Below, in pieces: positions 3,443-38,949 of a stretch of DNA of 44,374 nucleotides. The translations under genes were made by a program, and so were the position numbers. The DNA is from an uncultured delta proteobacterium (GTDB taxonomy: Bacteria; Desulfobacterota; Binatia; UBA9968): assembly GCA_963840855.1 (NCBI GenBank), contig CAWJBB010000036.1, forward strand, positions 1 through 44,374. Direction: 5' to 3'. Under the pieces are notes generated by a model that saw only the letters and a list, made by a program, of their open reading frames with translations, was not told where the DNA came from and did no database searches. Within the stretch, counting starts at the first letter, position 1. The number at the start of each line of letters is the position of its first letter.

Positions 3443-3490
3443 TTCCAAGCGTTCAATTCGTTCAAAACGTTCAAACGGTTTAAGCCGTTT
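3443..3490. repeat. Degenerate 9-bp tandem repeat (TTCAA-N4 units)
   Basis: ttccaagcg ttcaattcg ttcaaaacg ttcaaacgg tttaagccg read directly from the sequence. Confidence 0.8.
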
Positions 3491-6432: not shown

Positions 6433-7425
6433 CTATCTCAACGTCTGGATGACTTTGCGAACAACAGTAAAGTCGAATACCTGCTCCGGAAGCACCGGTT
6501 GCTTGGGTTTGATTCGAGCCGACGCGTCCGCGATCATTTGGCGCTGAACGTCTTCGCTCACCGAGCCATTTTCCAAAAGCGCCGGCCCGGCGATGTCATA
6601 CACGCGGGCGGCGATTTTTTCCGGGTCCTTGCCGATGTCCAACCACGGTCCCTTGATGAATTCAATGCCATACTTCCGATCGGATTTGATCAGGCGGATC
6701 GCCTTCATCATCGCGCGCACAACCTTGGTCACCAATTCGGGCTGCTCGGTCAGCAGAGCTTTGGTCGTCGCGAGACCCCCCTGCACCGATCGATAGACAT
6801 CGGCAGCGGACACCAGCTTGCGAAACCCTTCATCTTGCGCGGTGAAGGTCAAAGGCATCTGGAGCGGGGCGGCGTCAATGACTTTGGCTTTTAAGGATAG
6901 ATAGGTCATATGGCTTGGGCCCGTTGCAAGAATAACAGCTTCTTCGGGACGGACATTGTGCGCTTGGAGTATCCGGCGCGCGAGAATTTCCGCCAAAGAG
7001 CCGACACCGCCAGTGCCGATTTTTTTTCCGCGCAACTGTTGAACGCTGGTAATGTTCGGCTGGACTATAAGGTCGAATGACGGCTGGTCAGTGACGGCTA
7101 AAATGACCCTGATGTCGGCGCCGCTAACGGCGGAACTAACGGCCGATCCGGTTGCGGATGCGAATTGCGTGCTGTTCCCCATCGTCGCCTGAATCGTTTG
7201 GATCGCCTGCATCACGATGAGCTCGACTTCCAAACCTTCCTCGCGAAAAAAGCCCCGTTCCTTGGCGACAAAAAAGGGCATGGAAGTCGTGCTCCTGGCT
7301 GCTAACCCCATGCGTACGCGGGTAAGGTTCGCGGCGCCGTCCGCGGAAAGAGCGGTTCCGGCCGCACCAAACAAGAAAGTGACGACCGCTCCGAAAACCA
7401 TTAAATTTTGTTTGGTTCTAGTCAC
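6433..7425 (-). CDS. ABC transporter substrate-binding protein (NitT/TauT family)
   Basis: Signal peptide, VAKERGFFREEGLEVEL, LRGKKIG. AGGAGG RBS before GTG start. Confidence 0.85.
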   Translation of the reverse strand: MTRTKQNLMVFGAVVTFLFGAAGTALSADGAANLTRVRMGLAARSTTSMPFFVAKERGFFREEGLEVELIVMQAIQTIQATMGNSTQFASATGSAVSSAVSGADIRVILAVTDQPSFDLIVQPNITSVQQLRGKKIGTGGVGSLAEILARRILQAHNVRPEEAVILATGPSHMTYLSLKAKVIDAAPLQMPLTFTAQDEGFRKLVSAADVYRSVQGGLATTKALLTEQPELVTKVVRAMMKAIRLIKSDRKYGIEFIKGPWLDIGKDPEKIAARVYDIAGPALLENGSVSEDVQRQMIADASARIKPKQPVLPEQVFDFTVVRKVIQTLR

Positions 7426-7654
7426 CGCGTCCTCCTTGCGATTTCATCGACTTATCGGCATGACGTGCACGTCCTCATTTCTACGTTCAAATTACGCCGG
7501 TTTTCCCGGGTCCTAAGTCAAGTGCCGCCGAATCGTTACTGGGCTCCGCTCAACTAGTGAGATCGTCTTTGACAAAGTTACAATAGAGTTTCGTCGAGGG
7601 GAAGAATACTGGAGGAACGGGAGCGCGGTAACATTGGCGTTCGGAATGCTCCGG

Positions 7655-7726
7655 TCCCTTCTTGCCGTAGAGGGAATCGATGAAGCCTTACTTTTCGAGC
7701 GCGCGGACGATCCGGTCGTCGATGAC
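7655..7726 (-). pseudogene. C-terminal remnant of a NitT/TauT-type binding-protein gene
   Basis: Minus strand reads VIDDRIVRALEK*GFIDSLYGKKG, resembling the family C-terminus (compare FTDTALLKEIEKEGFF in 1305-2300), with an internal TAA. Confidence 0.5.
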
Positions 7727-8343
7727 TATCCCGCAGTATCTTGCGCAGCCGGTTCCTTCATCACATGCTCGATCAGCCGTTGCAGTTCGTCATAGGGCTG
7801 TGCGCCGACCATCAGATACTTACCGGCGAGAAACGTCGGCACGGCGTTCACGCCGTAGGCGGCGCAGCGGCGCCAGTCATCGTCAACAGCGTCTTTGAAT
7901 TTGCGGCTGAGCAGCGCGTCGGTGGCTTCGTCCACGGGCAAATCGTTCTCCTCGGCGATCTTGGCGAGGACGTCCGCTTTGCCGATATTCCTGACGTCGA
8001 CGAAGTAGGCGCGGAAAAGCGCGTTGACCACTTCCTCCGCCTTGCCTTTGGTTTCCGCCCATTTCGCCAGCTCCTGGGCCAGCCTGCTGTTGTAGGACAT
8101 GTTGCGTTCGGCGTTGAACGGCAGGCCTTCGCGTTCCATATTCACTTTCATGCGTTGGTTGCGCGCGATGATCTCCGGCCCTCTGACGCTGCCTTCTTCC
8201 GGCGTCTCCGGATGCAGGGGGAATTGAGTGAACTTGATCTCCAGTCCGTAGTTCTTCTTAAGTTTCTCGACACGCCCGGTGACGAGGTAGCACCAGGGTC
8301 AAACGAAATCGGAAAAGACTTCGAGTACGAGTGGTTCGGACAT
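7726..8343 (-). CDS. DsbA/FrnE-like thiol-disulfide oxidoreductase, probable selenoprotein (UPWC motif)
   Basis: GGAGG RBS, then ATG 8343: MSEPLVLEVFSDFV-TGA-PWCYL...FPLHPETP, in frame with the 141-aa ORF (GVNAVPTF, VGAQPY). TGA at 8301-8299 replaces the first Cys of the family motif SDxxCPWC. Confidence 0.85.
8266..8301 (-). promoter_or_regulatory. Candidate bacterial SECIS hairpin following the in-frame UGA
   Basis: UGA + 12 nt, then CUCG-U-CAC [loop CGGGC] GUG-U-CGAG stem-loop with G-rich apical loop. Confidence 0.6.
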
Positions 8344-8365
8344 TTGATTGCCTCCATTTCTATCG

Positions 8366-8452
8366 GTTCCAGTTCAAAGGTTCAAGTCGTTCAAAGTTCA
8401 AGTCCTTCAGACGGTTCAAGTCGTTCAAAACGTTCACGTCGCTCAAATCGTT
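8366..8452. repeat. Degenerate GTTCAA tandem repeat (7-9 bp units)
   Basis: gttcaaag gttcaagtc gttcaaa gttcaagtc cttcagacg gttcaagtc gttcaaaac gttcacgtc gctcaaatc. Confidence 0.8.
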
Positions 8453-8627
8453 GGTGCGTTGTTCCGAGGTAGGGGCGCAGCATGGCTGCGCCCAATTCGG
8501 TTCAAGTTCAACGATTGATTCTAGGGCTGTTGGTGGCGGGAAGTCAAAGGGATTCTGGAAATTCGGTGCGGCGTGAAGGTACGCCTGATATTGACATTGC
8601 GCTAAGCGCTCGGTTAGTTTCAAGCCA

Positions 8628-9422
8628 ATGGCTTTTATAAAAATCGGTGATTGTGTTCACCATTACGTTGTGGAAGGTCAAGCGGACAAGCCGGCGCTGC
8701 TGTTTTCGAATTCGCTCGGCAGCGATCTGCGCATTTGGGATCCGATGGTGCCTCAACTCGTGAGTGACTTTAGACTCATCCGATACGACACGAGAGGGCA
8801 TGGACTGAGCGAAGCGCCGCCGCCACCTTATAGCGCCGGCGAACTTGCAGGGGACGTCGTTGGTCTGCTGGACGCGCTTGAGATCAAGGAAGCCATCGTG
8901 TGTGGATTGTCAGTCGGCGGGGTGATCGCACAGCAGTTGGCAATCCAATATCCCGATCGTGTGCGCGCGCTGGTTCTCTGCGATACCGGCGTCCGGATCG
9001 GCACGGTGGCGAGTTGGGAAGAGCGCATCGAGACGGTCAGGGCCAAGGGGATTGGGGCATTGGCGGCGCCGTCTATGGAGCGCTGGTTCTCCGAAGACTT
9101 CCGCCGGCGCCATAGCGCAGAGGTGCGCGGCTATGCAAACATGGTTGTTCGCACAGCGGCAGATGGCTATGTCGGAACCTGTTGCGCGCTGCGCGATACC
9201 GATTTGACCCATGCGGCGGCGTCAATTGACAAGCCAACGCTCGTGTTATGCGGCGAACAGGACATTGCGACACCGCCGGAGATGGCGCGCCAGCTCGCGA
9301 ATATCGTTCCTAACGCCCGCCTATCGCTCATTCCCCAGGCGGCTCATATCAGTTGCGTGGAGCAGCCGGCGGTCATGGCAACCCGGATCATGCAATTCTT
9401 GCAGGAGGTGCAAATTGTCTGA
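8628..9422 (+). CDS. pcaD: 3-oxoadipate enol-lactonase
   Basis: LFSNSLGSDL, RYDTRGHG, GLSVGG nucleophile elbow, AAHIS. Leads the pca cluster. Confidence 0.9.
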   Translation: MAFIKIGDCVHHYVVEGQADKPALLFSNSLGSDLRIWDPMVPQLVSDFRLIRYDTRGHGLSEAPPPPYSAGELAGDVVGLLDALEIKEAIVCGLSVGGVIAQQLAIQYPDRVRALVLCDTGVRIGTVASWEERIETVRAKGIGALAAPSMERWFSEDFRRRHSAEVRGYANMVVRTAADGYVGTCCALRDTDLTHAAASIDKPTLVLCGEQDIATPPEMARQLANIVPNARLSLIPQAAHISCVEQPAVMATRIMQFLQEVQIV

Positions 9423-9801
9423 CGATCTTTTCGATAAAGGCATGGCGGTGCGCAAGTCAGTCCTCGGCGCTGAATATGTCGCGCGCGCCGAAGCCAACAA
9501 GACCGACTTCGATGCAGACTGGCAGCATTACGCCACCGAGCATGCCTGGGGCGCGGTCTGGACCCGGCCGGGGCTCGAAAAGAGAACCCGCAGCATGCTC
9601 ACCATCGCCATGCTGGCCGCGTTGGGGCGCCATGAAGAACTCGGCGCGCATATTCGCGCGACGCGCAACACCGGGGTGACCCGTGATGAAGTAAAAGAAG
9701 TGCTGCTGCAAGTGGCGGTGTACGCCGGCGCTCCGGCAGCCAATGCGGCCTTCGCCATCGCCAAGCGGGTATATAAGGAAATGGAGAACGAAGGCAAGTA
9801 A
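9415..9801 (+). CDS. pcaC: 4-carboxymuconolactone decarboxylase
   Basis: GMAVRKSVLG, AWGAVWTRPGL, EVLLQVAVYAGAPAAN. TTG start at 9415 after GGAGGT, overlapping pcaD. Confidence 0.9.
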   Translation: MSDDLFDKGMAVRKSVLGAEYVARAEANKTDFDADWQHYATEHAWGAVWTRPGLEKRTRSMLTIAMLAALGRHEELGAHIRATRNTGVTRDEVKEVLLQVAVYAGAPAANAAFAIAKRVYKEMENEGK

Positions 9802-9819
9802 ACCCGCGGGGTCGGCGTT

Positions 9820-10533
9820 ATGAAAATCTCGGAGTACAGCCCGCGTGATTGGAAGTCCCACCCGCCCTATGTTTTCAAGGGGTATGGTTCGTCAATCAAG
9901 CGCGGGCCGCTCAAAAAGCTCGTGCCGATCAAGCAGACTCTATCGGAGATTACCGGGCCGCTGTTCAGCGATATAAAATTGGCGCCGGGTGAGAACGATC
10001 TCACGCGCGACGCTGCAACCGGAAAAGCGGCTATGGGCGAACGCATCATCGTTGTCGGTAAGGTTATGGATGAGGACGAAAAGCCCATTGCCAATACGCT
10101 GATTGAAATTTGGCAGGCCAACGCGGCAGGGCGCTACCATCATCCGGTGGATCAGCATAACGCGCCGCTCGACCCCAACTTCACCGGCGCGGGGCGCTGC
10201 GTGACCAATGAGAAAGGGGAATATCGTTATCTTACGATCAAGCCCGGCGCGTATCCCTGGCTCAATCATCCCAACGCCTGGCGCCCGGCGCACATTCATC
10301 TGTCGATTTTCGGCCCAAGTTTCGCGACCCGGCTGGTGACGCAGTTTTTCTTTCCCGGCGATCCGCTGCTTCCGATGGACCCGATTTTCAATTCGATTCC
10401 GACCAAGAGCGGCCGCCGGCGGCTCATGGCCTCTTACGCTCACGATGTCACGGAACCGGAGTACGCGTTGGGCTATCGTTTCGACATCGTGCTGCGCGGC
10501 CGCAAAGCGACGCCTTTTGCGGAACCGAGATGA
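9820..10533 (+). CDS. pcaH: Protocatechuate 3,4-dioxygenase beta subunit
   Basis: EIWQANAAGRYHH, TIKPGAYPW, WRPAHIHLS (Tyr/His iron ligands). Confidence 0.95.
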   Translation: MKISEYSPRDWKSHPPYVFKGYGSSIKRGPLKKLVPIKQTLSEITGPLFSDIKLAPGENDLTRDAATGKAAMGERIIVVGKVMDEDEKPIANTLIEIWQANAAGRYHHPVDQHNAPLDPNFTGAGRCVTNEKGEYRYLTIKPGAYPWLNHPNAWRPAHIHLSIFGPSFATRLVTQFFFPGDPLLPMDPIFNSIPTKSGRRRLMASYAHDVTEPEYALGYRFDIVLRGRKATPFAEPR

Positions 10534-11103
10534 AGAAGCAAACTCCGTCGCAAACCGTCGGGCCGTTCTACGCCATCGCGCTCACGAATAAAACCATGAA
10601 TGTGTTGGTCAACGAATCGACGCAAGGCCAACGTATTCGCATCGAGGGCCAAGTCTTCGACGGCGGCGAACAGGCGATCCCCGACGTCATGGTTGAGATC
10701 TGGCAAGCCAACGCTTATGGCCGCTATAACCATCCTGAGGATAAACAGGAAAAGCCGTTCGATGCGGCGTTCACCGGCTGGGGCCGTTCCGGTACCGACG
10801 AAAACTGTTTTTACAGCTTCGAGACGATCAAGCCCGGATCTGTGCCGGGCGCGGATGATACGGTGCAGGCGCCGCACTGTAACGTGACGGTCTTTGCGCG
10901 CGGCATGTTGGTGCACGCGTACACGCGCTGTGTATTTCGCCGACGACCCGGCAAACGAGAGCGATCCGGTGTTGAATTCAATCAGGAACAAAGCGCGCCG
11001 CGCCACGCTGATCGCCAATCGCGAAGACAAGAACGGGAAGACGGTTTATCGTTTTAACATCAGGCTCCAGGGGAAGGATGAAACGGTCTTCTTTGATGTG
11101 TGA
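10530..11103 (+). CDS. pcaG: Protocatechuate 3,4-dioxygenase alpha subunit, frameshift near 10928
   Basis: QTPSQTVGPF, EIWQAN, VFARGML, then after one extra base VYFADD...YRFNIRLQGKDETVFFDV. ATGA overlap with pcaH. Confidence 0.9.
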
Positions 11104-11189
11104 ACGAGGGCCAAGCAGGAAATTTGGAGTGATGGACTACTGGAGTGTTGGGGTGAAAACCTGACCATCGAGCGAAATCGTTCTTGAAC

Positions 11190-12542
11190 ATGGCGCCCGT
11201 ACTCGACTCGACAATCTTCGGTCCGCTATTCACTGACGATGAGATTTCCTCGTTTTTCACCGACGCGGCGTACGTTCAAGCGCTGGTCGAAGTCGAAATC
11301 GCTTTGGCGCGGGCCGAAGCCAGGCTTGGCGTAATTCCGGCGAAGGCAGCCCGTCAGATCGCCGCCGCGCGGGCCGATAAGATCGACGTTGCGGCGCTGG
11401 GCAAAGGAACGATCCGATCCGGGTTTCCGATAGTTGCTTTGGTCCAAGAACTGCGTAAGCAAGCCGGCGCCGATGCGGCGCCGTTTGTTCACTGGGGGGC
11501 GACGACCCAGGACATCATGGATACCGCATCCGTGCTCCAGGTGCGCGCCGCGATCGGAACCTTCAAGAGCCGCCTTCGAGAAATTGTCCAGTGTCTGAGC
11601 GAACTCGCTGATAAACATCGCGCTACCGTGCTCGCTGGGCGCACTCACGGTCAGCAGGCTCTGCCGATTACATTTGGCGTAAAAGTCGCTGCCTGGCTGG
11701 CGCCACTGGTGCGTCACGGGCGGCGGCTGGATGAAATCTCCGCGCGGTTGCTCGTCGTCCAGTTCGGCGGCGCCGCCGGCACCCTCGCGGCCCTGGGTGA
11801 CAAAGGGCTTGCGGTGGCGCAGGCGCTTGCCGATGAGCTCAAGCTCACGGCGCCGGAAATGCCCTGGCATGCGCAGCGCGACAACTTCGTCGAGTTCGCC
11901 AGCTGGCTGAGTTTGGTGACGGGGAGTCTCGCGAAGATGGCGCAGGATATTATCCTCATGGCGCAAACCGAAGTCGGCGAAGCGTCTGAATCCGCGGAAG
12001 AAGGTCGAGGCGGTAGCAGCACAATGCCACAGAAGAGCAATCCGATCACCAGCGAGCTGATCGTTGCCGCGGCGCGGACCAACGCTTCTTTGCTTTCGGC
12101 GCTGCACAATGCGCAAATCCAAGAACATGAGCGTGCCACGCACGGCTGGCAAATGGAATGGCTGGCGCTGCCGCAGATGATCATGCTTACCGGCGGTGGC
12201 CTGAAGCATGCGCTCTATCTGGCGCGGAACCTGCAAGTAGACACTGAAGCAATGAGGGCGAACATCGCTCGGGCCAATGACGTCATTTTAGCGGAGGGGG
12301 CGGTGTTCGCGCTGGCCAAATCGATGCCGCGACCAAAGGCGGAAGAACTGGTCAAGAGAGCCTGCGGCGCAGCTGTTTCCGAAAACAAACCACTCATCGA
12401 AGTCGTGAAAAGATTGGCCGGCGATTCGGTCAAAAAGGGCGAGATCGACTGGCAAGCTTTGGCCGAGCCCAGGAACTACCTCGGCGCAACCGAAGAAATC
12501 ATCAACCGCGTGCTCAAGAGCGCGGAAAAGTTTTTCCACTAG
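11190..12542 (+). CDS. pcaB: 3-carboxy-cis,cis-muconate cycloisomerase
   Basis: VHWGATTQD, GRTHGQQA, QFGGAAGTL, GGSSTMPQKSNP fumarase-superfamily signature. pca context. Confidence 0.9.
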   Translation: MAPVLDSTIFGPLFTDDEISSFFTDAAYVQALVEVEIALARAEARLGVIPAKAARQIAAARADKIDVAALGKGTIRSGFPIVALVQELRKQAGADAAPFVHWGATTQDIMDTASVLQVRAAIGTFKSRLREIVQCLSELADKHRATVLAGRTHGQQALPITFGVKVAAWLAPLVRHGRRLDEISARLLVVQFGGAAGTLAALGDKGLAVAQALADELKLTAPEMPWHAQRDNFVEFASWLSLVTGSLAKMAQDIILMAQTEVGEASESAEEGRGGSSTMPQKSNPITSELIVAAARTNASLLSALHNAQIQEHERATHGWQMEWLALPQMIMLTGGGLKHALYLARNLQVDTEAMRANIARANDVILAEGAVFALAKSMPRPKAEELVKRACGAAVSENKPLIEVVKRLAGDSVKKGEIDWQALAEPRNYLGATEEIINRVLKSAEKFFH

Positions 12543-12745
12543 CAGGTATCTCTGAAGTTCGTTACATAGGGCAATCGTCATTCCGGGCAACCCCCGCGAA
12601 AGCGGGGGGCGACCCGGAATCCAGGTCAATCAACAGCGTCTGGATACCCGCTGGAGCTTGTCCTGAGCCCAGCCGAAGGGCGGGCATGACGGTGGGAAGA
12701 CCATCGACTTCTTTCGCGAACTTCCGGGACAGGACACTACACTAG
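12539..12745. repeat. Composite palindromic REP/MITE-like intergenic element
   Basis: CGTCATTCCGGG...CCCGGAATCCAG and CTGGATACCCGC...GCGGGCATGACG hairpins (12576-12691). Outer GAAGTTCG/CGAACTTC inverted repeat. CTAG at both ends. Confidence 0.7.
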
Positions 12746-12751
12746 AGAGAT

Positions 12752-13684
12752 ATGAACAAAGCTGCAAAAGACAACAAACTCTCCTCCATGCGCGAAGCTA
12801 TCGCCGCATACGTAGTCGACGACTGCTCCGTCTGTATTGAAGGCTTCACCGGTTTTATTTCGTTCGCCGCCGGCCACGAGATTATCCGGCAGCGGCGCCG
12901 GGGCCTCACTTTGATCCGCATGACGCCGGATTTGATCTACGACCAGATGATCGCCGCCGGCACGGCGAGAAAACTGATATTCAGCTACACGGGCAATCCG
13001 GGCGTCGGTTCGCTTTACTGCATTCGCCGCGCGGTGGAGAAAGCGGTTCCTTGCCCGCTGGAGCTGGAGGAGTACTCACACTACGGCTTGGTGGGGCGGT
13101 ATGCGGCGGGCGCGACGCGGTCGCCCTTCTTTGCTTTACGGAGCTACGTCGGCTCAGACATGCTGGCGGCCAACCCGCTGATCAAACTGATCGACGATCC
13201 CTACGGCACGGGCAAGATCGCCGTCGTGCCGCCGCTCAACCCCGACGTGGCTATTCTTCACGCCCAGCGCGCGGACCGTCACGGAAACACGCAACTATGG
13301 GGTTTGCTCGGCATGCAAAAAGAAGTGGCGTTTGCTTCCAAGCACGTGATCGTAGCGGTCGAGGAAATTGTCGACGAATCGGTGATCCGCGCCGATCCCA
13401 ACCGTACCTTAATTCCCGGTTTGATCGTCGATGCAGTGGTGCATTCGCCCTACGGCGCGCACCCTTCGTACGTTCAGGGGTATTACGACCGTGACAACGA
13501 ATCCTATCTCGCCTGGGATAAGCTTTCCCAGGAGCACGCAGCGGTGATAGCGTGGCTCGACGAATGGGTTTACGGCCTTGAGAATCATGCGGCCTATCTG
13601 CGCAAGCTAGGTCAGGAGCATTTTGATAAACTCAAGCCGGAGCCTTTGTTGGCGCCGTCGGTTGACTACGGGAGGTATCGATGA
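12752..13684 (+). CDS. CoA-transferase subunit A (glutaconate CoA-transferase-like), probable 3-oxoadipate CoA-transferase
   Basis: EGFT, AAGHEIIRQ, PDVAILHAQRAD, PYGAHPS. Lies directly after pcaB. Confidence 0.85.
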   Translation: MNKAAKDNKLSSMREAIAAYVVDDCSVCIEGFTGFISFAAGHEIIRQRRRGLTLIRMTPDLIYDQMIAAGTARKLIFSYTGNPGVGSLYCIRRAVEKAVPCPLELEEYSHYGLVGRYAAGATRSPFFALRSYVGSDMLAANPLIKLIDDPYGTGKIAVVPPLNPDVAILHAQRADRHGNTQLWGLLGMQKEVAFASKHVIVAVEEIVDESVIRADPNRTLIPGLIVDAVVHSPYGAHPSYVQGYYDRDNESYLAWDKLSQEHAAVIAWLDEWVYGLENHAAYLRKLGQEHFDKLKPEPLLAPSVDYGRYR

Positions 13685-14448
13685 GCGAGCCGACCTACAC
13701 GGAGTCGGAAATGATGATCGCGGTGGCGGCGCGCATGCTGGAAGGGGCGCGCACTGTTTTTGTCGGGGTCGGCTTGCCCAATATCGCCTGCAACCTGGCG
13801 CGCTACACTGTCGCGCCCGATATGGAGCTCATTTACGAGTCTGGTGTTTACGGCGCGCGGCCGGAGCGGTTGCCGCTTTCCATAGGAGATCCGACCTTGG
13901 TGAGCGGAGCGACTTCGGTTGTCTCCATGGCGGATCTGTTCGGCTTGTACTTACAGCGGGGCTTGGTCGAGATAGCGCTGCTCGGCGGAGCGCAGATCGA
14001 CCGATACGGCAACTTGAATTCGACGGTTATCGGCGCATACGCGAAGCCGAAAACACGACTGCCGGGAAGCGGCGGCGCCTGTGAGATCGCCACTAACGCG
14101 CAACGGACGTTTATGATCATGCGGCTCAAACGCCGCGCGTTCGTGGAGAAGCTCGATTTTCTCACCAGCCCCGGTCATCTCACCGGCGGTGACAGCCGCG
14201 CCCGGCTGGGTTTGCCCGGCGGCGGGCCGGAACTGGTGATCACCGACAAAGCGATTTTAAATTTCGCCAATCCTGAGCGCGAAATGCAGTTAACCGCTCT
14301 TTATCCCGGTGTCACACGCGAAGACGTGCAGGCTGAAGTCGGCTGGCCGCTGCGTCTGGCCGACACCATCCAGGAAACCGCCGCGCCGACCACCGAAGAG
14401 CTGCGTTTGATCCGCGAAGAAGTCGATCCCCACGCGATGTATCGGTGA
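13681..14448 (+). CDS. CoA-transferase subunit B
   Basis: FVGVGLP, IYESG (catalytic Glu), GGAQIDRYGNLNST, RLPGSGGA. ATGA overlap with subunit A. Confidence 0.85.
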   Translation: MSEPTYTESEMMIAVAARMLEGARTVFVGVGLPNIACNLARYTVAPDMELIYESGVYGARPERLPLSIGDPTLVSGATSVVSMADLFGLYLQRGLVEIALLGGAQIDRYGNLNSTVIGAYAKPKTRLPGSGGACEIATNAQRTFMIMRLKRRAFVEKLDFLTSPGHLTGGDSRARLGLPGGGPELVITDKAILNFANPEREMQLTALYPGVTREDVQAEVGWPLRLADTIQETAAPTTEELRLIREEVDPHAMYR

Positions 14449-14804: not shown

Positions 14805-14996
14805 ATGCGATCGAATCTAAAACGGAAAAACTACTATCTAGACGAAAAAAAGATTCGCCGGGTACGCACCATTTTGGGTAAGAAGACGGAGACCGAGGCC
14901 ATCGATGCCGCATTGGACTTGGTGGTATTCAAAAAGGAGATTCTTGCATCACTGGAGAAAGTCGCCGGTAAGGGCGGCGTCGAGAAAGTTTTCTAG
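14805..14996 (+). CDS. VapB-like antitoxin (ribbon-helix-helix type)
   Basis: 63 aa, RKNYYLDEKKIRRVRTILGKKTETEAIDAAL. Stop overlaps the start of the PIN gene. Confidence 0.75.
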   Translation: MRSNLKRKNYYLDEKKIRRVRTILGKKTETEAIDAALDLVVFKKEILASLEKVAGKGGVEKVF

Positions 14997-15428
14997 TGGC
15001 CAAACATTTGATCGATAGCGATCTTTACATTGACCTCATCCAAAACCGAGCCACACTGCCTATTTTAAGGGAACTCTACGAAAACGATGCGCCAGGGATC
15101 TATTTTAGCTCGATCGTCATTCAAGAGTTGTTGGCCGGCGCTCGTGGCCCGAGAGCAAGAACCCAGGTAGAAACTCTTTATCGGCCCTTCGAGAGGGCCG
15201 GGAGGATCGTAACTCCGAACCACTCCCAGTGGAAAGATTCTGGCAACATGCAGGCCAAGGCGCTTACAATGCGGCCGGATTTAAAGAATAAGCTCCCGAC
15301 TCTCGTCAATGATTGCCTTCTCGCGCTCAGCGCAAGATCGATTGGCGCGACTCTATATACCAGGAATCGGAGACGATTTCATGGTTCTGAAGCGCCTTCG
15401 TTCGTTCAACTTAGTCGTAATCACCTGA
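14996..15428 (+). CDS. VapC-type PIN-domain toxin, frameshift near 15374
   Basis: LIDSD, SSIVIQELLAG, VNDCLLA, LYTRN(R)DF. Corrected frame ends ...LVVIT* at 15428. Confidence 0.85.
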
Positions 15429-15523
15429 ATAACGTCTGGCCTCAAACAGTCGCCCAATATTCGATGAGGGGCGTCACCCGGTGGTTTCTTTGTTAAAGTT
15501 TTGACAACTGCGAAATAGCCTTT

Positions 15524-15665
15524 TTATTCTCCTTCGCCGAATACCTCGCAGCTTGCTGCGAGGATGAAGGTGAGGAGAACCCTCCGTAGCCTTGGCGAAG
15601 GAGGGTGGAAGGGCTTCGGAGAATTTCGCAAAGATACCTCGGAGCTTTGCTCCGAGGAGCTTCAT
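15524..15665. repeat. Twin-hairpin element (IS200/IS605-end/REP-like)
   Basis: ATA-CCTCGCAGC-TT-GCTGCGAGG (hairpin 15544-15563) and ATA-CCTCGGAGC-TTT-GCTCCGAGG (hairpin 15637-15657) flank CCCTCCGTAGCCTTGGCGAAGGAGGG. Confidence 0.65.
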
Positions 15666-15956
15666 TTTGACGTTTCAGGAACTCCCGACGGACCCTCATC
15701 CAAGTCGTAGCCGTGATAAACGATTTGAACAGGAGCGCAGCGGTTGAACGATTGAAACGTCTGGAACGGGCATCGGTATTGAATAGCCACGACCACGTCT
15801 TTTCCCCCAATTTTATCCTTTTGCCTTTAGCTGTCCTCCTTTGCTATTCTCCATACGCCTCGATCCGGGATGTGGCGCCTTAGACCGGTTTTCCGAGCGC
15901 AAACCCGATTCAAGTTTTGCTTCAGGTTTAGGATCAGTCGATCTCTTTGAGATAAA

Positions 15957-18952
15957 ATGCCGCAAGTCGTCATCGAAAATCCCGTTCTCAACTCCGCCTT
16001 CGATGAACCGACGCGCCATTTCCGATTCACCGACGAAGGCATCACCAACGAGATCGTTGAAGGCCGCCGGACCAGTTCGTATTTCGTTCCGATACCGCGC
16101 CCAAAGAAAAAGGCGAAGCAGCTTGCCTTCGACACCGAGTGGACCCAGGACCGCATCGAAGAGAACAGGCTCGTCAACCGACATCCGCGCGCCGCGTCGT
16201 CCTGTGGCGCAGCGGGGGCTACGTCGGCGTGACGCCCGACGACCGCGCAGCTTGCTCGACTACTGGACCGATCCCGACCGCGAGAAGAAGCTCTTCTTCT
16301 GCCAGATCGAAGCCCTCGAAACCGCCATCTACATCACCGAGGTCGCCAAGAAATACGGCGATGCCTGGATCGAGAACGCGACTTCGCGCGGCCAACGACA
16401 CCTCGAACCCCGGCCTGCCGCGCATGGCGTTCAAGATGGCCACCGGCTCCGGCAAGACCGTCGTCATGGCGATGCTCATCGCCTGGCACACGCTCAACAA
16501 GCTCGCCAACCCGCAGGACGCCCGCTTCTCCGACACCTTCCTGATCGTCACGCCCGGCATCACCATCCGCGACCGGCTGCGCGTGCTGCTGCCGAACGAC
16601 CCGGACAACTACTACCGCCAGCGCGACATCGTCCCGCCGCCACCTGCTGGAACAGCTCGGGCAGGCCAAAATCCTCATCACCAACTTCCACGCCTTCCAA
16701 GCTGCGCGAGAAGGTCGCCGCCGGCAAGCTCACCAAGGCGATTCTCGCCGACGGGCAGCCAAGCACGTTCACCGAGACCCCCGACCAGATGGTGCGCCGC
16801 GTCTGTCGCGAGTTGGGCACCAAGAAGAACATCATCGTCATCAACGACGAAGCCCATCACTGCTACCGCCGCAAACCCGACGGCGAGGACGAACACGCTC
16901 ACCGGCGACGATCGCAACGAGGCCGAAGCAGCGCGACGAAGAGGCCCGCATCTGGATTTCCGGCATCGAGGCCGTGAAAGCCAAGATCGGCGTGAAGGCC
17001 ATCTACGACCTGTCGGCCACGCCGTTCTTCCTGCGCGGCTCCGGCTACCCCGAAGGCACGCTCTTCCCTTGGGTCGTCTCCGACTTCTCGCTGATCGACG
17101 CCATCGAGTCCGGCATCGTCAAGGTGCCCCGCGTGCCGGTGGCCGACGACTCGATGACCGGCGACCAGCCGACCTACCGCGACCTGTGGCTGCGCATCCG
17201 CGAGGACCTGCCGAGGAAGGGCCGCAAGACCGACGCCGTCGAGTGGCGAACCGAAGCTCCCCGTCGAACTGCAAGGGGCGCTGCACAGCCTCTACAGCAA
17301 CTACGAGAAGTACTACCGCCTGTGGGAGCAGAACGCCGAGGCCCGCGGCCGTGGCAGTCTGACGCCGCCGGTGTTCATCGTCGTCTGCAACAACACCAAC
17401 GTCTCCAAACTGGTCTTCGACTACATCGCCGGCTGGGAAAAGCCGATCGGCGACCAGACGATCGTCCAGGCCGGGCAACTGCCCATCTTCCGCAACGACG
17501 ACGGCCACGGCGCCTGGCTGCACCGCCCGAACACCATCCTGGTGGACAGCCAGCAACTCGAATCCGGCGAGGCCATGAGCGACGATTTCAAGAAGATCGC
17601 CGCCCGCGAAATCGACGAGTTCAAGGCCGAATACCGCGCCCGCTTCCCCGGCCGCGATACCGAGCGACCTGACCGACGAAGACCTGCTCCGCGAGGTGAT
17701 GAACACGGTCGGCAAGGCCGGCAAGCTCGGCGAACACGTCAAGTGCGTCGTCAGCGTCTCGATGCTGACCGAGGGCTGGGACGCCAACACCGTCACCCAC
17801 GTCCTCGGCGTGCGCGCCTTCGGCACGCAACTGCTCTGCGAGCAGGTGGTCGGCCGGCCCTGCGCCGCATGAGCTATGCCGCCAACGCCGACGGCCATGT
17901 TCGACCCCGAATACGCCGAGGTCTACGGCGTGCCGTTCTCCTTCATTCCCGTGCAGCGGCTCCACCACAGACCCCAAGCCCGGCCCGCTGCCCACCCGCG
18001 TCCGCGCCCTGGAAGACCGCATCGCCTGCGAGATCACCTTCCCCCGACTGCTCGGCTACCGCTACGACATGGCCGGCGAGCGGCTCACCGCCACTTTCAC
18101 CGACGACTCCAGGCTCGCCCTCTCCACCGCCGACATCCCCACCAAGACCGAGAACGCGCCCATCGTCGGCGAGATCCAGCATCCACACCCTCGACGACCT
18201 CAAACGCCGCCGCGCCCAACGAAGTCGCTTTCCTGCTGGCCAAGCTGACGCTGGAGAAATACTTCCGCGACGACGACGGCAACGACAAGCCCTGGCTTTT
18301 CCCGCAACTGCTCGGCATCGCCAAACGCTGGCTGGCCGAATGCGTCACGCTCAAGGACAACACCTTCCCGCAACTGCTGCTGCTGCATCGAGTTCGCCCA
18401 CGACGCCGCCGACCGCATCTACAAGGCCATCGTCGCCTCGACCGACGGCACGGCGGCGCTCAAGCCGATCCTGCGCCCCTACGACACCATCGGCTCCACC
18501 CGTTATGTCGATTTCGACACCACCCGCGCCGTCTATCGCGACCCGCGCCGACAAGTGCCACGTCTCCCATGTCGTGGCCGACACCGACTCGTGGGAACAG
18601 AAGATGGCCCAAGCCCTCGAAGACATGCCCGAGGTCATCCGCTACGTCAAGAACCACAACCTCGGCTTCACCATCCCCTACACGCTGAACGGCGAAGAAC
18701 AGCACTACCATCCCCGACTTCATCGCCTGCATCGACGACGGCCACGGCCCCGACGACCTGCTCAACCTGATCGTCGAAGTCACCGGCGAGCAGAAGAAGG
18801 ACAAGGCCGCCAAGGTCGCCACGGCGCGCACGCTGTGGGTGCCGGCGGTGAACAACCACGGCGGTTTCGGGCGCTGGGCGTTTATCGAAATCGCCGATCC
18901 GTGGGACGCGAAAAACGCAATCCGATCGACTCTGGGAGCATCCGATGAGTGA
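15957..18952 (+). CDS. Type III-like restriction subunit (SF2 helicase + C-terminal PD-(D/E)xK nuclease), many frameshifts
   Basis: Across frames: [58 protein letters not shown]...LIVEVTG, ending [25 protein letters not shown]. Confidence 0.85.
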
Positions 18953-20335
18953 CCGAATTAAGGTTAGCAGCCCGCTCATCGATCCGATCTACTCGCAGAC
19001 CGATCCGAGCCAACCGATCAACCTGGGACGGGTGGCGGTTCAGTTCGACTATGAAGGCACGACGTACAAGGAGATGGCTAACGTCGCGATGAGGTTCATG
19101 CCCGACGACCGGCTTGAATTCGTCTGCCCGCTGGAAAATAAGTCTCCGATGTTCGGCCTGGGATTATTCGTTGACGATGGCCGCGACCTGAAGCTTACGT
19201 TGACAGATAGAGGCATAAGCTTCGACGTTTTTTGTGCGCCCGTTGGTGGAGACCACAACGGGATCGTCTTCTTGCCAAAAAAATCGGGCGTCGTGGTTAT
19301 GCCTCCATCGAACGCCATCTCAACTGTGACGTTCCATTTGTTCAACTTCCCAGACTTCCGTGGACCTGAAAACTACATTTTTATGACGGGTGAACCACCG
19401 CGGCAAGGCGGTCGAAGCTGCGGTAGGGTCGTGTTCAAAGCAGAAGGCTGGAACATTACCGTCGCGGCCACAGACCGGACAGACAGTCTTACGAAGGCAC
19501 TGAAAGCTCATGGTGGCTATGTCATCACGCACATGGGGCGGATAGCGCGAGAGGATGGCTCGACGTTTTCAAGCGAGCATCTCGACGACCTGCTGAGCTG
19601 CTTGCACTACTTCCTTTCTTTCGCCTTGGGCCGTTGGGCAGGCGTCGCGCTACCGATCGGATGCGATGCCGAGGGGAATAAAGTCCTTGAGCAATGGGGT
19701 TTGAGAATCACCGCAGACGGCCCATGGAAGGGCTCGTCTCATGGTTTGACTTGCATCGTGGGGAATTGCTGTCCCAGGTATTTACTGGCTTCATGTCACT
19801 CTGGACGAAACAACTTTGGCGTAAGCCTTTGCGCGACGCTCTTTACTGGTATTTAGGAGCGTGCGATCGCCGCGTCGGGATTGGCGTCGACACCGGATTG
19901 ATCCTCGCTCAGGCGGCGTTGGAACTGCTTGCGTGGACTTACTGCGTCCTCGACCGGAAGATGGTTTCGCCGGCCGCGTTCAAGCGTCGCGGACTCTCCG
20001 CCGCGGACAAGCTGCGGCTTCTGACATCCTCATTAAACATTGCACAAGAGATCCCACCTAATTTTTCAGCGCTGCACAGTAGGCAGGGAAGGAAATGGGC
20101 GGACGGCATGGATGCGATAACCGCCATACGTAACTCGCTTGTCCATCCGGATGCTCAGACAAAGCTTCCAGGCCATTCATACTACGAGGGGTGGAAATTA
20201 TCGTTGTGGTATATCGACCTGGTTCTCCTGCGACTTTGTGGGCACTACGGGAAGTATGCCAACAGATTGGCTCAACAATGGACGGGCGAAGTTGAATCAG
20301 TCCCTTGGGCTCAGAACGAAGCTGACAAAGCATGA
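18945..20335 (+). CDS. ApeA-like HEPN-domain protein (putative RNase defence effector), frameshift near 19730
   Basis: About 460 aa when joined. Beta-rich N-half, helical C-half with AQAALELL and ITAIRNSLVHP (RxxxxH at 20129-20146). Start overlaps the res stop. Confidence 0.65.
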
Positions 20336-20416
20336 TCGTCGCCGAAAGACGACACAATTGTCAGCGAATCCATCCGGCATGCGCGATGATTAACCAGGCG
20401 TCAAGGAAAACTAGTA

Positions 20417-23071
20417 ATGGCTAAGAAGAAGACCACGCCGAAGAAAGTCGAATCCATGCGCCACAAAGACAAGCGCGCCAACATCCCAACGGAGGAACTG
20501 CGCGACTTTGTAGCCGAGGATGAAAAGGCCCCCAAGACCATGCTCTACCCACGCGACCCGTCGCTCGATCCGCAGCTGGTCTGGAAAGGAAAAGATGAAC
20601 AGGACCAAAGGGATCTCGCGGTCCCGGTCGTGCCAATCTACATCCAGGAGAAAATTCACCCGCAGGCGATCATCGAGAACCTGCCGGCAAACGGCCTCTG
20701 CGGGCAAGAAGCGAGCCGGAGCCAACTGCTCTTCGCTGACTTCAACGGCCTCGACGATGACTTCGACAAGAAAGTCGATTTCTACAAGCACGAGCAGCAC
20801 TGGACCAACCGCATGATCCTTGGCGACTCGCTATTGGTGATGACGACCCTTGCCGAGAAGGAAGGCCTCAAGGGCAAGGTGCAGATGCATCTACCTCGAC
20901 CCGCCCTACGGCATCAAGTTCGGCTCCAACTGGCAGGTGACCACCCGCAAGCGCGACGTAAAGGACGGCAAGGCCGAGGACGCCACCAGCCAGCCCGAGC
21001 AGGTGCGCGCCTTCCGCGATACCTGGAAACTGGGCATCCACTCCTATCTGGCTTACCTGCGCGACCGGCTGACCGTGGCCCGCGACCTGCTCACGGAGAC
21101 GGGCAGCGTCTTTGTGCAGATTGGGGATGAGAACGTGCATCTGGTGCGATGCGTGATGGATGAGGTGTTTGGGAGTGAGAATTTCGTAAGTCTTATCAGT
21201 TTTCGTACAAGAACGTCGAGCCTACGGCGGAGATTTCCTCGGGAACAGCTGCGACTACATCGCTTTGGTACGCGAAAGAACAGTGAACACTTGAAATATC
21301 AGGCAGATGTATCGTGACAAAAGCTACGGAGGAAGATGTTGGCGGACGATACTCGCGAGTGGAATTACCGGATGGAAATCGCCGACGTTATGACGACAGA
21401 GGAAAGGAGACGACATTAACCGACTACCTCCGGGCACGACGGATTTATCGCCATGACAACCTGACATCGCAAAGCGGAACAGAGAACGAGCAAATTCCCG
21501 GTGGTATTTGAAGGAGCGAAGTACATCCTTGCCGCAAGTGGACGACTGGAAAACCAACACCGAAGGGATGCAGCGATTACTTGGCGGCACGCCGCATTGC
21601 TGCGCCAAGCGTGAACTCACTTGCGTATGTGCGCTTTCTCGATGATTTCCCGGCCGCGACATTTATCAAACGTCTGGACGGACACTGCAGTCAGGGGCAT
21701 TTACCGACGATAAGATCTATGTCGTTCAAACTAACACGAAGGTCATTGAACGCTGCCTCCTCATGACCACCGACCCCGGCGACCTGGTAATCGACCCGAC
21801 ATGCGGTAGCGGCACGACCGCTTATCGTCGCCGAGCAGTGGGGCCGACGCTGGATCACCGGCGACACAAGCCGCGTTGCTCTGGCCCTCGCCCGCACGCG
21901 CCTGATGGCAGCGAAGTATCCTTACTATCTGCTGGCCGACTCACCCGAAGGCATCACGAAAGAAACTGAACTAACGGGCAAGCTGCCCCCCGCATATAAG
22001 ACAGAAAGCGACATCAAGAAAGGCTTCGTCTACAAGCGCGTGCCGCACGTGACGCTCAAATCCATCGCCAACAACCCGGATATCAGGGAAGGCATGACGC
22101 CGCGAGCAGACTCGACGCGCGCCATCGCTCGTCACGCCGAGCACCGAAACGCTCTACGATCAGCCCTACGAAGACAACGAAGCGTATCCGCGTGACCGGG
22201 CCGTTCACGGTGGAAAGCCTCTCGCCGCATCGCGTGCTGCGCTGCTAAAGAGAACCACGATGGCAGTGTCACTGAACAGGAAGCGCAAGCAAGCAACAGG
22301 ACTTCGCCACGATGATCCTCGAAAACCTGCGTAAAGCTGGCGTGCAGAACACGAAGAAGAGCGAGCGGCTGAAGTTCGACACGTCTCGACACCTATGCCG
22401 GGCCAGTGGATACACGCCGATCGGCAATTACGCCGAGGCTGACGGCAAGACGAGGCGAGCCGCTATTTCCATAGGCCCTGAGCATGGCACCGTCGGGCCG
22501 CTTCAAGTCAAAGAAGCGGCGAAGGAAGCGGTCAAGGGCGTCGGTTTCGATATGCTGATCGTCTGCGGTTTCGCCTTCGATCCGCATGTTTCCGAAGAGG
22601 CGAAGCGTTACGGTAAGCTTAATGTTATTGCCAGCCAAAATGAACCCGGACCTGGCGATGGGCAACGAACTCTTGAAGAAGACCGGAGCCGGAAACCTCT
22701 TCATGTATCTTCGGCGAACCGGATATCGTTATCACGAAACAAAAGGATGGAAAGATCGTCGCCGAGATAAAAGGCTTGGACGTGTACGACCCCACCACCG
22801 GCGAGATCCGCACGTCGTCAACCGACGACATCGCCTGCTGGTTCATCGACACGAACTACAACGGCGAGAGCTTTTTCGTCCGCCACGCCTACTTCACGGG
22901 AGCCGAAGAACCCTACGACAAACTCAAGCGATCGCTCCGCGCTGAAATCGACGAGGCAGCCTGGTCTGCTCTCTACAGCACGAAAAGCAGTCCCTTCGAC
23001 CTGCCCGAAGACTGGCAAAATCGCGCGTAAAGGTCATCAATCACTATGGCGACGAAGTTTTGAAGATCTAA
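20417..23071 (+). CDS. Site-specific adenine DNA methyltransferase (type III Mod-like, beta class), many frameshifts
   Basis: [16 protein letters not shown] (20898), [26 protein letters not shown] (21793), long C-terminal region ending [13 protein letters not shown]. Confidence 0.85.
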
Positions 23072-26079: not shown

Positions 26080-27799
26080 ATGACGACCATTGGATGGATT
26101 CAGATTCTTTTGTTTTCACTCGTTATATTTGCTGTCACCAAGCCTCTCGGAAGTTACATGTTTCGTGTATTCGAGGGCGATCGGCAGCCTTTGCCACGCT
26201 TCTTCGGACCGATCGAACGGTTGATTTATCGCCTCTGCGGCGTTGACCCCAAAGCGCAGCAAGATTGGAAGCAATACGCCCTTGCGATGCTGCTCTTCAG
26301 CGCATCACGTTGCTCGTGACCTACGCTATCGAGCGGTTACAGCACGTCCTTCCCTTAAATCCACAGAACCTAGGTCCCGTGCCGGCTGATCTTGCATTCG
26401 GTACTGCGTCTAGTTTCACCACCAATACGAACTGGCAGGCGTACGGTGGCGAGTCGACGATGAGCTATCTGACTCAGATGGCGGGGCTCGCCTGGCACAA
26501 CTTCATCTCCGTCGGCATCGGCATCGGCGTCATGTTGGCGATCGCGCGCGGCATGACCTATCGCTTCAGCCCGGCGCGCCGAAAACGATCGGCAATTTTT
26601 GGGTCGATCTGAACCGTTCCGTGGTCTATCTCCTTATTCCTTTTTCCGTCGTCATGGCGTTGGTGCTGGTGTGGCAAGGAGTTCTGCAAAACTTTTCATC
26701 CTACATCGAACTGACGACACTGGAAGGAGCGAAGCAAACTCTGGCCATGGGGCCGGTAGCGTCGCAGATAGCGATCAAAGAACTCGGCACCAATGGCGGC
26801 GGTTTTTTCAACGCCAACAGCGCTCATCCGTTCGAGGAGGAACTCCGCTGGCGAATTTCATCGAAATGATAGCGATTTTCGCGATCCCGGCGGCGCAGAC
26901 TTATACGTACGGCCTCATGGCGCGCGACACCAAGCAAGGCTGGATGCTCTTCGGAGCGATGGCGATTTGTTTTTTATGGGCGTGACGACGGCTTATTACT
27001 TCGAGACAAGGCCCAATCCAGTGATGCAAGGTATGGCCGTGGATCAAACGGCCGGCAACATGGGAGGGAAAAGAAGTTCGCTATGGCGTTGCCAACTCCG
27101 TGACTTGGGCGACAGCAACGACCGACGCGTCAAACGGTTCGGTCAATTCCATGCACGATAGTTACAATCCTCTCGGCGGTCTCGTGCCCCTCGCGAACAT
27201 TCAGCTCGGCGAACTGGTCTTCGGCGGCGTCGGCGCGGGGCTTTACGCCATGCTGGTGTTTGTTCTGGTCTCCGTGTTTATCGCCGGGTTGATGGTCGGG
27301 CGCACGCCCGAATATCTCGGCAAGAAAATCGAATCACGGGAGATCAAGCTCTCAATGCTTTACGTGCTGATCTTTCCGTTGCTGATTCTTTATTTCACCG
27401 GCTGGTCGCGTCGTCGCGCCGTACGGCCTTTCATCCTTGAACAACGCCGGACCGCACGGGCTTAGCGAAATCTTATACGCTTATAGCAGCGCCGCGGGAA
27501 ACAACGGCTCCGCTTTCGCCGGACTGAACGCTAACACACCCTGGTACAACGTCAGCCTCGGCCTGACGATGCTTGCCGGGCGCTTTTTGATGATCATTCC
27601 CGTGCTGGCGGTTGCTGGCTCATTAGTAGGGAAGAAAGCCGTGCCGGAAAGTCTGGGCACATTCCCGACCAACGGATCGCTTTTCGTCGTGCTGCTGGTC
27701 GGCATCATTATTATCGTCGGGGCATTGACGTTTTTCCCGGCGCTGGCGCTTGGGCCGATCGTCGAACATTTTTTGGCCAATGCAGGAAAGGTGTACTAA
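26080..27799 (+). CDS. kdpA: K+-transporting ATPase subunit A, several frameshifts
   Basis: [75 protein letters not shown]. Confidence 0.95.
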
Positions 27800-27800
27800 G

Positions 27801-29849: not shown

Positions 29850-29933
29850 GACTGGTTGAAAGGCGTGAGGCGCGAGCCGGAGCTGAGGCAAAGTTCTATG
29901 ACGAACTGTGAGATACTAACCCTAGGAGTAACT

Positions 29934-30622
29934 ATGAAAAATACTTGGTATCGCTATAACGAACTACAGTGTACTCTTGTTCTAACCGGACTTCTCTATC
30001 CCTTCGCGATGACCGGACTCGCTCAAGTGCTCTTCCCTTGGCGAGCAAACGGCAGCTTGGTGACAGATGAAAAAGGGTCAAGTCGTCGGCTCGGAATTGA
30101 TTGCGACAGGGATTTGCCAATCCAGCCTATTTTCAGCCAAGGCCGTCGGCGGCCGGAGAGAAGGGCTACGACGCGACGTCTTCGTCGGGCTCCAACCTCG
30201 GTCCGACGTCGAAGAAGTTGCAGGACCGTATAAACGACGATCTCAAACGATTGAAGGCAGAAAATCCGGAAGCCACCGGATCCGTTCCCGCTGAACTTGT
30301 CACTACGTCTGCGAGCGGACTCGATCCGCATCTTTCGCCTGAAGCGATGCTCTGGCAGCTGCCGCGAGTTGCCAAGGCGCGCGGTGTGGCTGCTGAGCGA
30401 GTGAAAGCCGCTGTCGATGCGAACGTGGAAGGAAGAACTTTCGGTATATTAGGCGAGCGCAGGGTCAATGTGCTTCTGGTCAATTTAGCGCTTGATCGGC
30501 AATTCGGCCGGCCGGCTCCACTTCCTCCGGCTCCCGAAAAGAAGGAAACGAAGGATGCGAACAAAGAGGGCGCGACGCCCTCGCCACCGGCAAACCAGAG
30601 CGCTCCGCCTCCGGAGAAATAA
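29934..30622 (+). CDS. kdpC: K+-transporting ATPase subunit C, frameshifts near the 5' end
   Basis: LYPFAMTGLAQVLFPWRANGS, YFQPRPSAAG, SGSNLGP, TTSASGLDPHLS, VNVLLVNLALD. AGGAG RBS. Confidence 0.9.
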
Positions 30623-30762
30623 CGCGCCGATGGGAGGAGTTGATGAAGAAGATTGAAGCGATCCGCTTCAGTGGTAAAGATATGCTTTCCAGCCTATATT
30701 CGCATAGCAGTGGTAATGCGGAGAAGCTTGTCGGCTGCTACTCAAAGCTCCCTCGGATAGTC

Positions 30763-31000
30763 ATGGATTGGCTCACGTTTTTTGGTTTGTTTGCGGTTAC
30801 GGCGATGCTGGTGTGCTACGCATAGAAGATCTACAGCCCTGGTTTATCCTGGCTTCGCCTTGGCATGCGCGCTGGCGTCGGCGTACGGTTTTCTGCAAGG
30901 GCGCCTGGCCCTTTGGGTGGTAGAGGCCATCTGGTGCTCTCGTGCCTACGGCGCTGGTCGGAGAAGAATCCGGTTCGTAGCTTCGTCTGTGAAGAATTAA
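30763..31000 (+). CDS. Small hydrophobic membrane protein (frameshifted)
   Basis: Joined frames give MDWLTFFGLFAVTAMLVCYA...GFALACALASAYGFLQG..W...VVEAIW, three hydrophobic segments. Confidence 0.55.
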
Positions 31001-31044
31001 CGGGACTCGTTCAAAAAAAGACCTGATCGCGGAAAAGATTTGTC

Positions 31045-38941: not shown

Positions 38942-38949
38942 TTTAGCTC

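Follow-up and report, generated by a model that had tools for sequence, protein, structure and literature searches.

A probable selenocysteine-encoding gene of the FrnE branch of the DsbA family, with a covarying hairpin after its in-frame UGA, in an uncultured delta proteobacterium

We analysed a stretch of 44,374 nucleotides (nt) from an uncultured delta proteobacterium (GTDB lineage Bacteria; Desulfobacterota; Binatia; UBA9968; assembly GCA_963840855.1, contig CAWJBB010000036.1), hereafter called the window, and conclude that its minus-strand frame at 8343-7726 is very probably a genuine selenocysteine (Sec) gene. Its predicted product is a cytoplasmic thiol:disulfide oxidoreductase that belongs to the FrnE branch within the DsbA family and has Sec in place of the attacking cysteine of the CPWC motif. 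The frame opens with an ATG (8343-8341), runs through 14 sense codons to a TGA (8301-8299, codon 15), and then stays open to codon 205 (7726), before a TAG stop at 7725-7723. The peptide around the in-frame TGA is MSEPLVLEVFSDFV-U-PWCYLVTGR, with the motif SDFV-U-PWC. An initial annotation, made from the letters alone, had proposed a ribosome-binding site (RBS), the start codon, the position of the TGA and an unbroken reading of 205 residues, and we recovered all these coordinates exactly. The features that matter most to the argument, including a candidate selenocysteine insertion sequence (SECIS), are the following.

7726-8343, minus strand: predicted coding sequence of a 205-residue FrnE/DsbA-like selenoprotein (frame, Pfam DSBA match and orthologous frames)
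8299-8301, minus strand: in-frame UGA, read as Sec15, the predicted attacking residue of U-P-W-C (TGA in 79 of 80 loci, Cys in 18 homologs, start of helix 16-32)
8290-8292, minus strand: TGC, Cys18, the predicted resolving cysteine of U-P-W-C (invariant in alignment A4, 80 sequences)
8266-8286, minus strand: putative bacterial SECIS hairpin, with an 8-position stem (8286-8279/8273-8266) and the 5-nt loop CGGGC (8278-8274) (pairing, frozen codons, energy and published constraints)
8351-8355, minus strand: Shine-Dalgarno sequence GGAGG, 7 nt upstream of the ATG (sequence match)

The TGA is conserved across a broad set of genomes. A scan of DNA, with one genome per species, gave 80 loci with 49-91% identity to the window gene. 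All 80 carry an intact orthologous frame of 194-228 codons, and the codon aligned with the window TGA is TGA in 79 of them and TGC in one (L041). By record title, the loci come from Binatia, ‘delta proteobacterium’, Thermodesulfobacteriota, Syntrophobacteraceae, Alpha-, Beta- and Gammaproteobacteria, Rokubacteria/Methylomirabilota, SAR324, Planctomycetota, and Acidobacteria-type and other metagenome-assembled genomes (MAGs); the nearest relatives of the window copy are MAGs titled delta proteobacterium, Binatia or Thermodesulfobacteriota. At the protein level, an alignment of 23 sequences (A1) has cysteine in the UGA column in 18 cases, tryptophan in one, and the U of the window, while three sequences begin after the column. 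The full-length distant homologs with cysteine at this position (P0121-P0126 and others) are 36-51% identical. The alternation of TGA and cysteine among homologs, which the initial annotation had put forward as a check, is therefore observed at both levels. A FastTree tree of alignment A4, rooted at its midpoint, places L041 among Sec-bearing sequences of Burkholderiales type and some cysteine representatives near Sec clades; the tree is not used to infer a direction of change. A crude search of the window for TGA codons that lie in frame next to Cys, Ser or Thr returned 274 candidates, most of them meaningless, and supports no claim about further selenoproteins in the window.

The codons on either side of the TGA evolve as coding sequence. 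In the 80 sequences compared, the residues of the 11 codons upstream (-11 to -1) are kept while the codons vary synonymously (for example, Phe is TTC in 44 and TTT in 34, and Val is GTC in 37, GTT in 36, GTA in three and GTG in one), and about 20 codons after the TGA are also conserved as protein. Since the codons before the UGA are conserved at the protein level, translation must begin upstream and cross it. In most relatives a purine-rich stretch of the GGAG type precedes the start, as judged by eye and not counted.

The RNA downstream of the UGA provides the second line of evidence. A stem-loop, CUCGUCAC-CGGGC-GUGUCGAG (8286-8266, minus strand), begins 12 nt after the UGA, and its stem in the window has seven Watson-Crick pairs and one U.U mismatch. 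We analysed its pairing in 80 UGA-bearing sequences (the window and 79 loci, 68 distinct rows), leaving aside the cysteine form L041. Across this set, 92.3% of the cells are paired, and two of the pairs show compensatory changes: pair 19-33 (AU 45, GC 18, UA 3, UG 1, other 1) and pair 21-31 (UA 49, CG 19). These variable pairs occur in the combinations GUC/GUC (the variant found in the window), GUU/AUC, AGU/AUU, AGC/GUU, UGU/AUA and UGC/GUA, so the covariation is not the result of a single inherited change. When the 3' partners were slid by one to three columns, 21-48% of the cells paired, with no compensatory change at all. The nucleotide switches in the stem change the encoded residues as well (Val...Val, Ser...Ile, Cys...Ile). 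The use of synonymous codons is frozen precisely along the hairpin (codons +5 to +9), with Leu as CTC in 80/80, Thr as ACC in 79/80, Gly as GGG in 49/49 and Arg as CGT in 80/80, whereas four or five codons are used in later columns where Pro, Leu, Thr and Gly are just as conserved. The 21-nt hairpin sequence is identical in the window and in the loci L001-L016, and L041, the TGC form, lacks the conserved string of hairpin nucleotides. The SECIS-like hairpin pointed out in the initial annotation is, in view of its pairing and of its frozen codons, a conserved and covarying element.

This hairpin also resembles known bacterial elements. The constraints for bacterial SECIS (bSECIS) given in the accessible text of PMC13188914 are a loop of 3-9 nt, a stem of 4-16 bp, a G in the first two loop positions, a spacing of 16-37 nt between UGA and loop, and a minimum free energy of at most -7.5 kcal/mol. 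The window hairpin falls within every one of them, with a 5-nt loop, a stem of 8 positions, a spacing of 20 nt and -8.7 kcal/mol. The second loop position is G, followed by G or U (CGGGC in 49, CGTGC in 30 and GGTCC in one of the 80 UGA forms). The 29-nt hairpin alone folds as initially drawn, in 97% of the ensemble; its energy has a z-score of -1.48 relative to shuffled sequences, of which 18 out of 200 were equally good. The position within the coding region just 3' of the UGA, the small apical loop with G then G or U, and the 20-nt spacing are shared with the E. coli fdhF-type SECIS and the bSECISearch consensus, and SelB is predicted to bind the hairpin.

The product of the whole frame is a recognisable member of the DsbA family. 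The read-through protein matches the Pfam family DSBA (PF01323) with an E-value of 1.6e-36 and 126 bits (cut-off 25.6), its residues 7-191 covering profile positions 2-190 of 191, and this full-length match requires reading through the UGA. An AlphaFold model built with 80 aligned sequences has a predicted local distance difference test score (pLDDT) of 95 and a predicted template modelling score (pTM) of 0.90. In this model, a strand (6-11) leads into a helix (16-32), and U15 is predicted to lie at the N-terminus of that helix. The helix N-terminus after strand 1 is the classical position of the nucleophile in the thioredoxin fold. Pfam, the A1 alignment and the alignment with FrnE agree on this point, as claimed at the outset for the nucleophilic Cys of a CPWC motif. 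The top structural matches are FrnE of Deinococcus radiodurans (5COH, 5CNW and others; template modelling score (TM) 0.84-0.87) and SCO1869 of Streptomyces (3GL5; TM 0.87, root-mean-square deviation 2.2), followed by YjbH, a putative isomerase of Nitrosomonas, HCCA isomerase, DsbM and kappa glutathione S-transferases (GSTs). Sequence comparison also puts FrnE first (E-value 4e-16), with its CPWCY aligned to U-P-W-C. DsbM (P. aeruginosa, 5HFI), YjbH (the Spx adaptor, 6GHB) and HCCA isomerase/kappa GST (2IMD, 1R4W) have the same overall fold, with TM of 0.67-0.77, and are weaker matches than FrnE and SCO1869; the sequence match to HCCA isomerase has an E-value of 3e-4. To our knowledge, the isomerase/kappa-GST branch uses no CxxC dithiol.

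With the active site at residue 15, after the strand 6-11, only 14 residues precede it, which leaves no space for a signal peptide, a judgement made from length and from this strand without a signal-peptide predictor. The cytoplasmic location initially suggested fits these data, and the signal peptide and export of a periplasmic DsbA oxidase are absent from the Sec protein. The window does encode a Cys-type DsbA, also noted at the start, at 40306-40965. This protein has a CGYC motif, a DSBA/Thioredoxin_4 match at residues 48-208 and, unlike the Sec protein, a hydrophobic N-terminus of about 35 residues. FrnE proteins are described in the accessible portion of PMC8945050 as predicted cytoplasmic oxidoreductases of the DsbA family with a CP(W/F)C motif, many of which, though not all, have a C-terminal CxxxxC involved in regeneration. 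The same text reports that Deinococcus FrnE has isomerase and insulin-reductase activity in vitro, and that its mutant shows sensitivity towards cadmium and diamide. The window protein shares with this FrnE (DR_0659; 5CNW, 5COH, 5CP1) the cytoplasmic DsbA-family fold with an inserted helical domain and a CPWC-type motif at the start of helix 1. It differs in having Sec for the first cysteine, in its length (205 versus 260 residues, at 24-26% identity), and in ending at residue 205 without the CxxxxC tail that is proposed in the accessible part of PMC8945050 to regenerate the FrnE active site; its only other cysteine is C160.

We propose the following mechanism, in which the part played by SelB is modelled on the established bacterial pathway. 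Translation would initiate at the ATG at 8343, and the hairpin at 8286-8266 in the mRNA would recruit SelB with Sec-tRNA(Sec) to the UGA at 8301-8299, leading to insertion of Sec instead of termination. The ribosome would then continue to the TAG at 7725-7723. In the protein, Sec15, located where the first helix of the thioredoxin fold begins, would attack substrate disulfides, and Cys18 would resolve the intermediate as a selenenylsulfide. Because the CxxxxC tail of Deinococcus FrnE is absent, some other reductant would presumably regenerate the enzyme. By analogy with FrnE, the protein may act as a cytoplasmic Sec-dependent disulfide reductase or isomerase.

A number of observations weigh against our interpretation. 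In a context of 71 nt, the minimum-energy fold differs from the hairpin and is no better than expected by chance (z-score +0.83, 164 of 200 shuffles as good). The folding check suggested in the initial annotation thus came out as drawn for the 29-nt hairpin and failed in the longer context, and the hairpin is therefore not proven by the single sequence; it is the comparative data that prove it. The window stem has U.U where 48 of the 68 distinct relatives have G.U, and the two ends of the loop (positions 1 and 5) are both C and unable to pair, unlike the commonest published pattern. The hairpin differs in sequence from every Rfam model: the whole window gave no match at gathering thresholds and the region 8150-8400 none at a permissive E-value. 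RNAalifold, run on a 48-nt alignment, returned another weak fold (-3.9 kcal/mol). That fold consists of near-invariant columns with no compensatory pair; we considered it uninformative and rejected it for the covarying hairpin. No NCBIfam model reached its cut-off for the read-through protein (the best, the Rcas_1661 (seleno)lipoprotein model, scored 34.5 bits versus a cut-off of 190 and matched the C-terminal half only). Furthermore, none of the 53 open reading frames (ORFs) scanned in the 44-kb window has a selA, selB or selD domain, the window contains no tRNA-Sec (selC; ARAGORN found 0 tRNAs), and the assembly carries frameshifts in its kdp genes. Finally, the neighbourhood of the gene is not conserved across the family in the 22 loci that we compared, and there is no family-wide operon partner. 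The genes around it therefore offer no hint of the substrate, and the protein more probably has a general redox function than one tied to a single pathway.

The absence of sel genes and of tRNA-Sec from the window would also be expected if the genome had lost its Sec machinery, so that the UGA of a still intact gene now terminates translation and the gene is heading for decay. We consider this improbable because there are no signs of decay: the frame and the RBS are kept, as is a hairpin identical to that of 16 relatives. A less probable alternative still is that the functional product is a downstream ORF alone, such as 8151-7726, with the upstream part left untranslated. Under the standard code, the longest ORF listed for this frame is indeed 7726-8151 (141 amino acids), and 118 of the 120 closest database proteins, which are 76-99% identical to the window protein, are N-truncated forms of 141-176 amino acids starting after the TGA, while P0001 has an unrelated N-terminus and P0002 reads W at the column, in SDFVWPWC, as a result of translating TGA under another code. 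Three elements of the thioredoxin fold (strand 1, the active site and helix 1) would be missing from such a product, and this explanation leaves unaccounted for both the protein-level conservation on the two sides of the TGA and the RBS and ATG at 8355-8341. We thus regard these entries as truncated by standard annotation, as had been anticipated. The ORF on the opposite strand (7741-8472) has no family match.

There is very little to recommend an explanation by nonsense mutation or sequencing error, in which an ordinary Cys-type FrnE gene would have become a pseudogene or would be seen as an artefact. Frameshifts do occur in genes of the window assembly, with at least four pieces of kdpA and two each of kdpC and kdpD, but the TGA recurs in 79 of 80 species-level loci with intact frames, the 21-nt hairpin is the same in the window and in L001-L016, and the sequence directly downstream of the TGA is constrained at the nucleotide level. 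A general reassignment of TGA to Trp or Gly in this organism (genetic code 4 or 25), in line with the W given to P0002 by its source, can be practically discarded, since TGA terminates 10 of the 26 window ORFs checked (Pfam-supported or listed) and 35 of the 80 orthologs, the column holds Cys rather than Trp or Gly in homologs, and a conserved SECIS-type hairpin follows the codon.

The region upstream of the Sec gene contains two further features.

8518-8547, minus strand: putative sigma-70-like promoter TTGACT-18 nt-TAGAAT (10 of 12 positions match; no other site in 7600-8700)
8366-8511, minus strand: leader with tandem T(T/G)GAAC motifs, spaced by 6-9 nt, and an 8-bp GC hairpin (repeat and motif scans)

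The putative promoter lies about 175 nt upstream of the ATG, and a similar ‘tttgact...tagaat’ was seen by eye, without counting, upstream in many of the closer relatives. If used, it would produce a 5' leader of roughly 165-170 nt. Just downstream of it, a GC-rich 8-bp inverted repeat, GGGCGCAG/CTGCGCCC, with a 5-nt loop (8493-8473, minus strand) is not followed by a run of U. The T(T/G)GAAC arrays of the leader are at 8366-8452 and 8500-8511 (minus strand), and Tandem Repeats Finder reports 8372-8452 with a period of 9/18. The motif occurs 79 times in the window, compared with 43 +/- 6 expected, a number reached by none of 100 shuffles. Clusters of at least three motifs are found in six places of the window and in seven of the 80 loci (L002, L005, L006, L007, L008, L010 and L019), and in six of these seven loci the array (TGGAAC or TTGAAC) directly precedes the orthologous Sec gene. 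The other arrays of the window are at 3451-3474, 38952-38966 and 42927-42953 on the minus strand, and at 38983-39015, 41898-41930 and 43000-43019 on the plus strand. The arrays are intergenic, with their motifs spaced by 7-9 nt, and several stand directly before a gene start, on the strand of that gene. They have no Rfam match: the leader region 8330-8640, searched at a permissive E-value, gave only three chance-level matches, far below gathering. From this arrangement, they could be repeated binding arrays for an RNA- or DNA-binding regulator. The leader repeats and hairpin may lie outside the Sec function.

A bolder interpretation, which we regard as doubtful, combines these observations. 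Sec would be close to fixed in this FrnE clade, and the SECIS would dictate the overlapped L-x-T-x-R-x-E, with the paired switches (Val/Val, Ser/Ile, Cys/Ile) serving only to keep the RNA paired. In the lineage of the window, the leader U(U/G)GAAC array, which recurs before several other genes, would control the gene, possibly by binding an undescribed RNA- or DNA-binding regulator.

The Sec gene is divergent from a protocatechuate/beta-ketoadipate cluster (8628-14448) that encodes an alpha/beta hydrolase, CMD, two Dioxygenase_C, Lyase_1 and two CoA_trans proteins, and it is followed by the gene of an NMT1-type binding protein (6433-7425). Our comparison of neighbourhoods covered 22 of the 80 loci and 123 ORFs. 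Genes of the kind found in the pca cluster of the window lie upstream of the Sec gene in seven of the 22: Dioxygenase_C in L001, L002, L003, L006, L007 and L009, in some cases with Abhydrolase_1, CMD or Lyase_1, and Abhydrolase_1 only in L005. An NMT1 protein is encoded downstream in five, and, apart from the DUF488 and MFS pair described below, the other neighbours are unrelated. With this pattern, a role devoted to aromatic catabolism lacks support and was rejected. A DUF488 and MFS pair lies directly upstream of the Sec gene in three of the 22 loci (L011, L014 and L015). In the window, a pair of DUF488 and MFS_1_like genes adjoins the exported Cys-type DsbA (40306-40965) within 38408-40965. 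The presence of this pair beside DsbA in the window and beside the Sec gene in relatives could reflect a rearrangement or a loose functional link.

Three other regions of the window showed unusual gene structures. In the cluster divergent from the Sec gene, the alpha/beta-hydrolase ORF (8628-9422, ending in TGA) and the CMD ORF (9211-9801, plus strand) share about 210 nt, read in different frames. An internal codon is probably the start of the CMD gene, although there may instead be a frameshift in a fused gene of the pcaD/pcaC type. At 14996-21130 (plus strand), long ORFs in several frames overlap one another over about 6 kb (15841-16977, 16139-17362, 17371-18948 and 18945-19856 are examples) and match nothing in Pfam at E <= 1e-5. 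A DNA methylase fragment comes next, at 20850-21317, and the region may be mobile or frameshifted. The kdp genes (26265-32203, plus strand) are split over frames, apart from kdpB (27750-29849), which is whole, a pattern that suggests either assembly errors of the indel type or genes in decay. The initial annotation had described the other defects of the window as almost all indels, which fits the splitting of kdpA, kdpC and kdpD.

DsbA-like selenoproteins had been reported before, as the initial annotation stated. In the accessible portion of the 2005 study of the Sargasso Sea selenoproteome (PMC1088965), where both the family and its SECIS are published, a ‘DsbA-like protein’ (COG2761, UxxC, nine sequences) is a new selenoprotein family, and supplementary file 1 of that study includes members with the motif [FT]DY[IV]-u-PWC and the same peptide downstream. 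By eye, two of its entries share the downstream run PWC[YF]LSTV.IEKLK ... FPLHP[ED]TP.[EG]G, and at least one carries a hairpin of the CUCAGUACCGUGCGUAUUGAA type, as in the loci L044-L080. DsbA-like selenoproteins are also listed, in the available text of PMC1794560, for Anaeromyxobacter dehalogenans, Desulfovibrio desulfuricans and Desulfotomaculum reducens, and the ‘DsbA-like protein (form 1), PF01323, UxxC’ is listed in the accessible sections of the reviews PMC9312934 and PMC13188914. The window protein has the domain of form 1 (PF01323/COG2761, UxxC), with U-P-W-C near its N-terminus, and does not differ from it in kind: the copy in the window comes from another lineage, with the GUC/GUC stem and the U.U mismatch. 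A literature search and the accessible part of PMC9999580 gave nothing on Sec use in the Binatia lineage. The window gene is thus a further, unannotated member of a known family, and since this family was described in 2005 it opens no new kind of biology.

The main value of the finding is a correction of annotation, as public protein sets systematically carry the gene in truncated form. According to the accessible text of PMC13188914, selenoprotein genes are routinely cut short or overlooked by annotation pipelines. Here, with nearly all of the closest entries starting after the UGA, standard pipelines do not see the redox-active N-terminus of a selenoprotein that is widespread in the environment. 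The set of 80 sequences is also an unusually clean natural record of covariation for a bacterial SECIS and shows an RNA structure constraining the protein sequence that it overlaps. Sec would be inserted at this UGA in the source organism, and the gene marks this host as a likely user of selenium.

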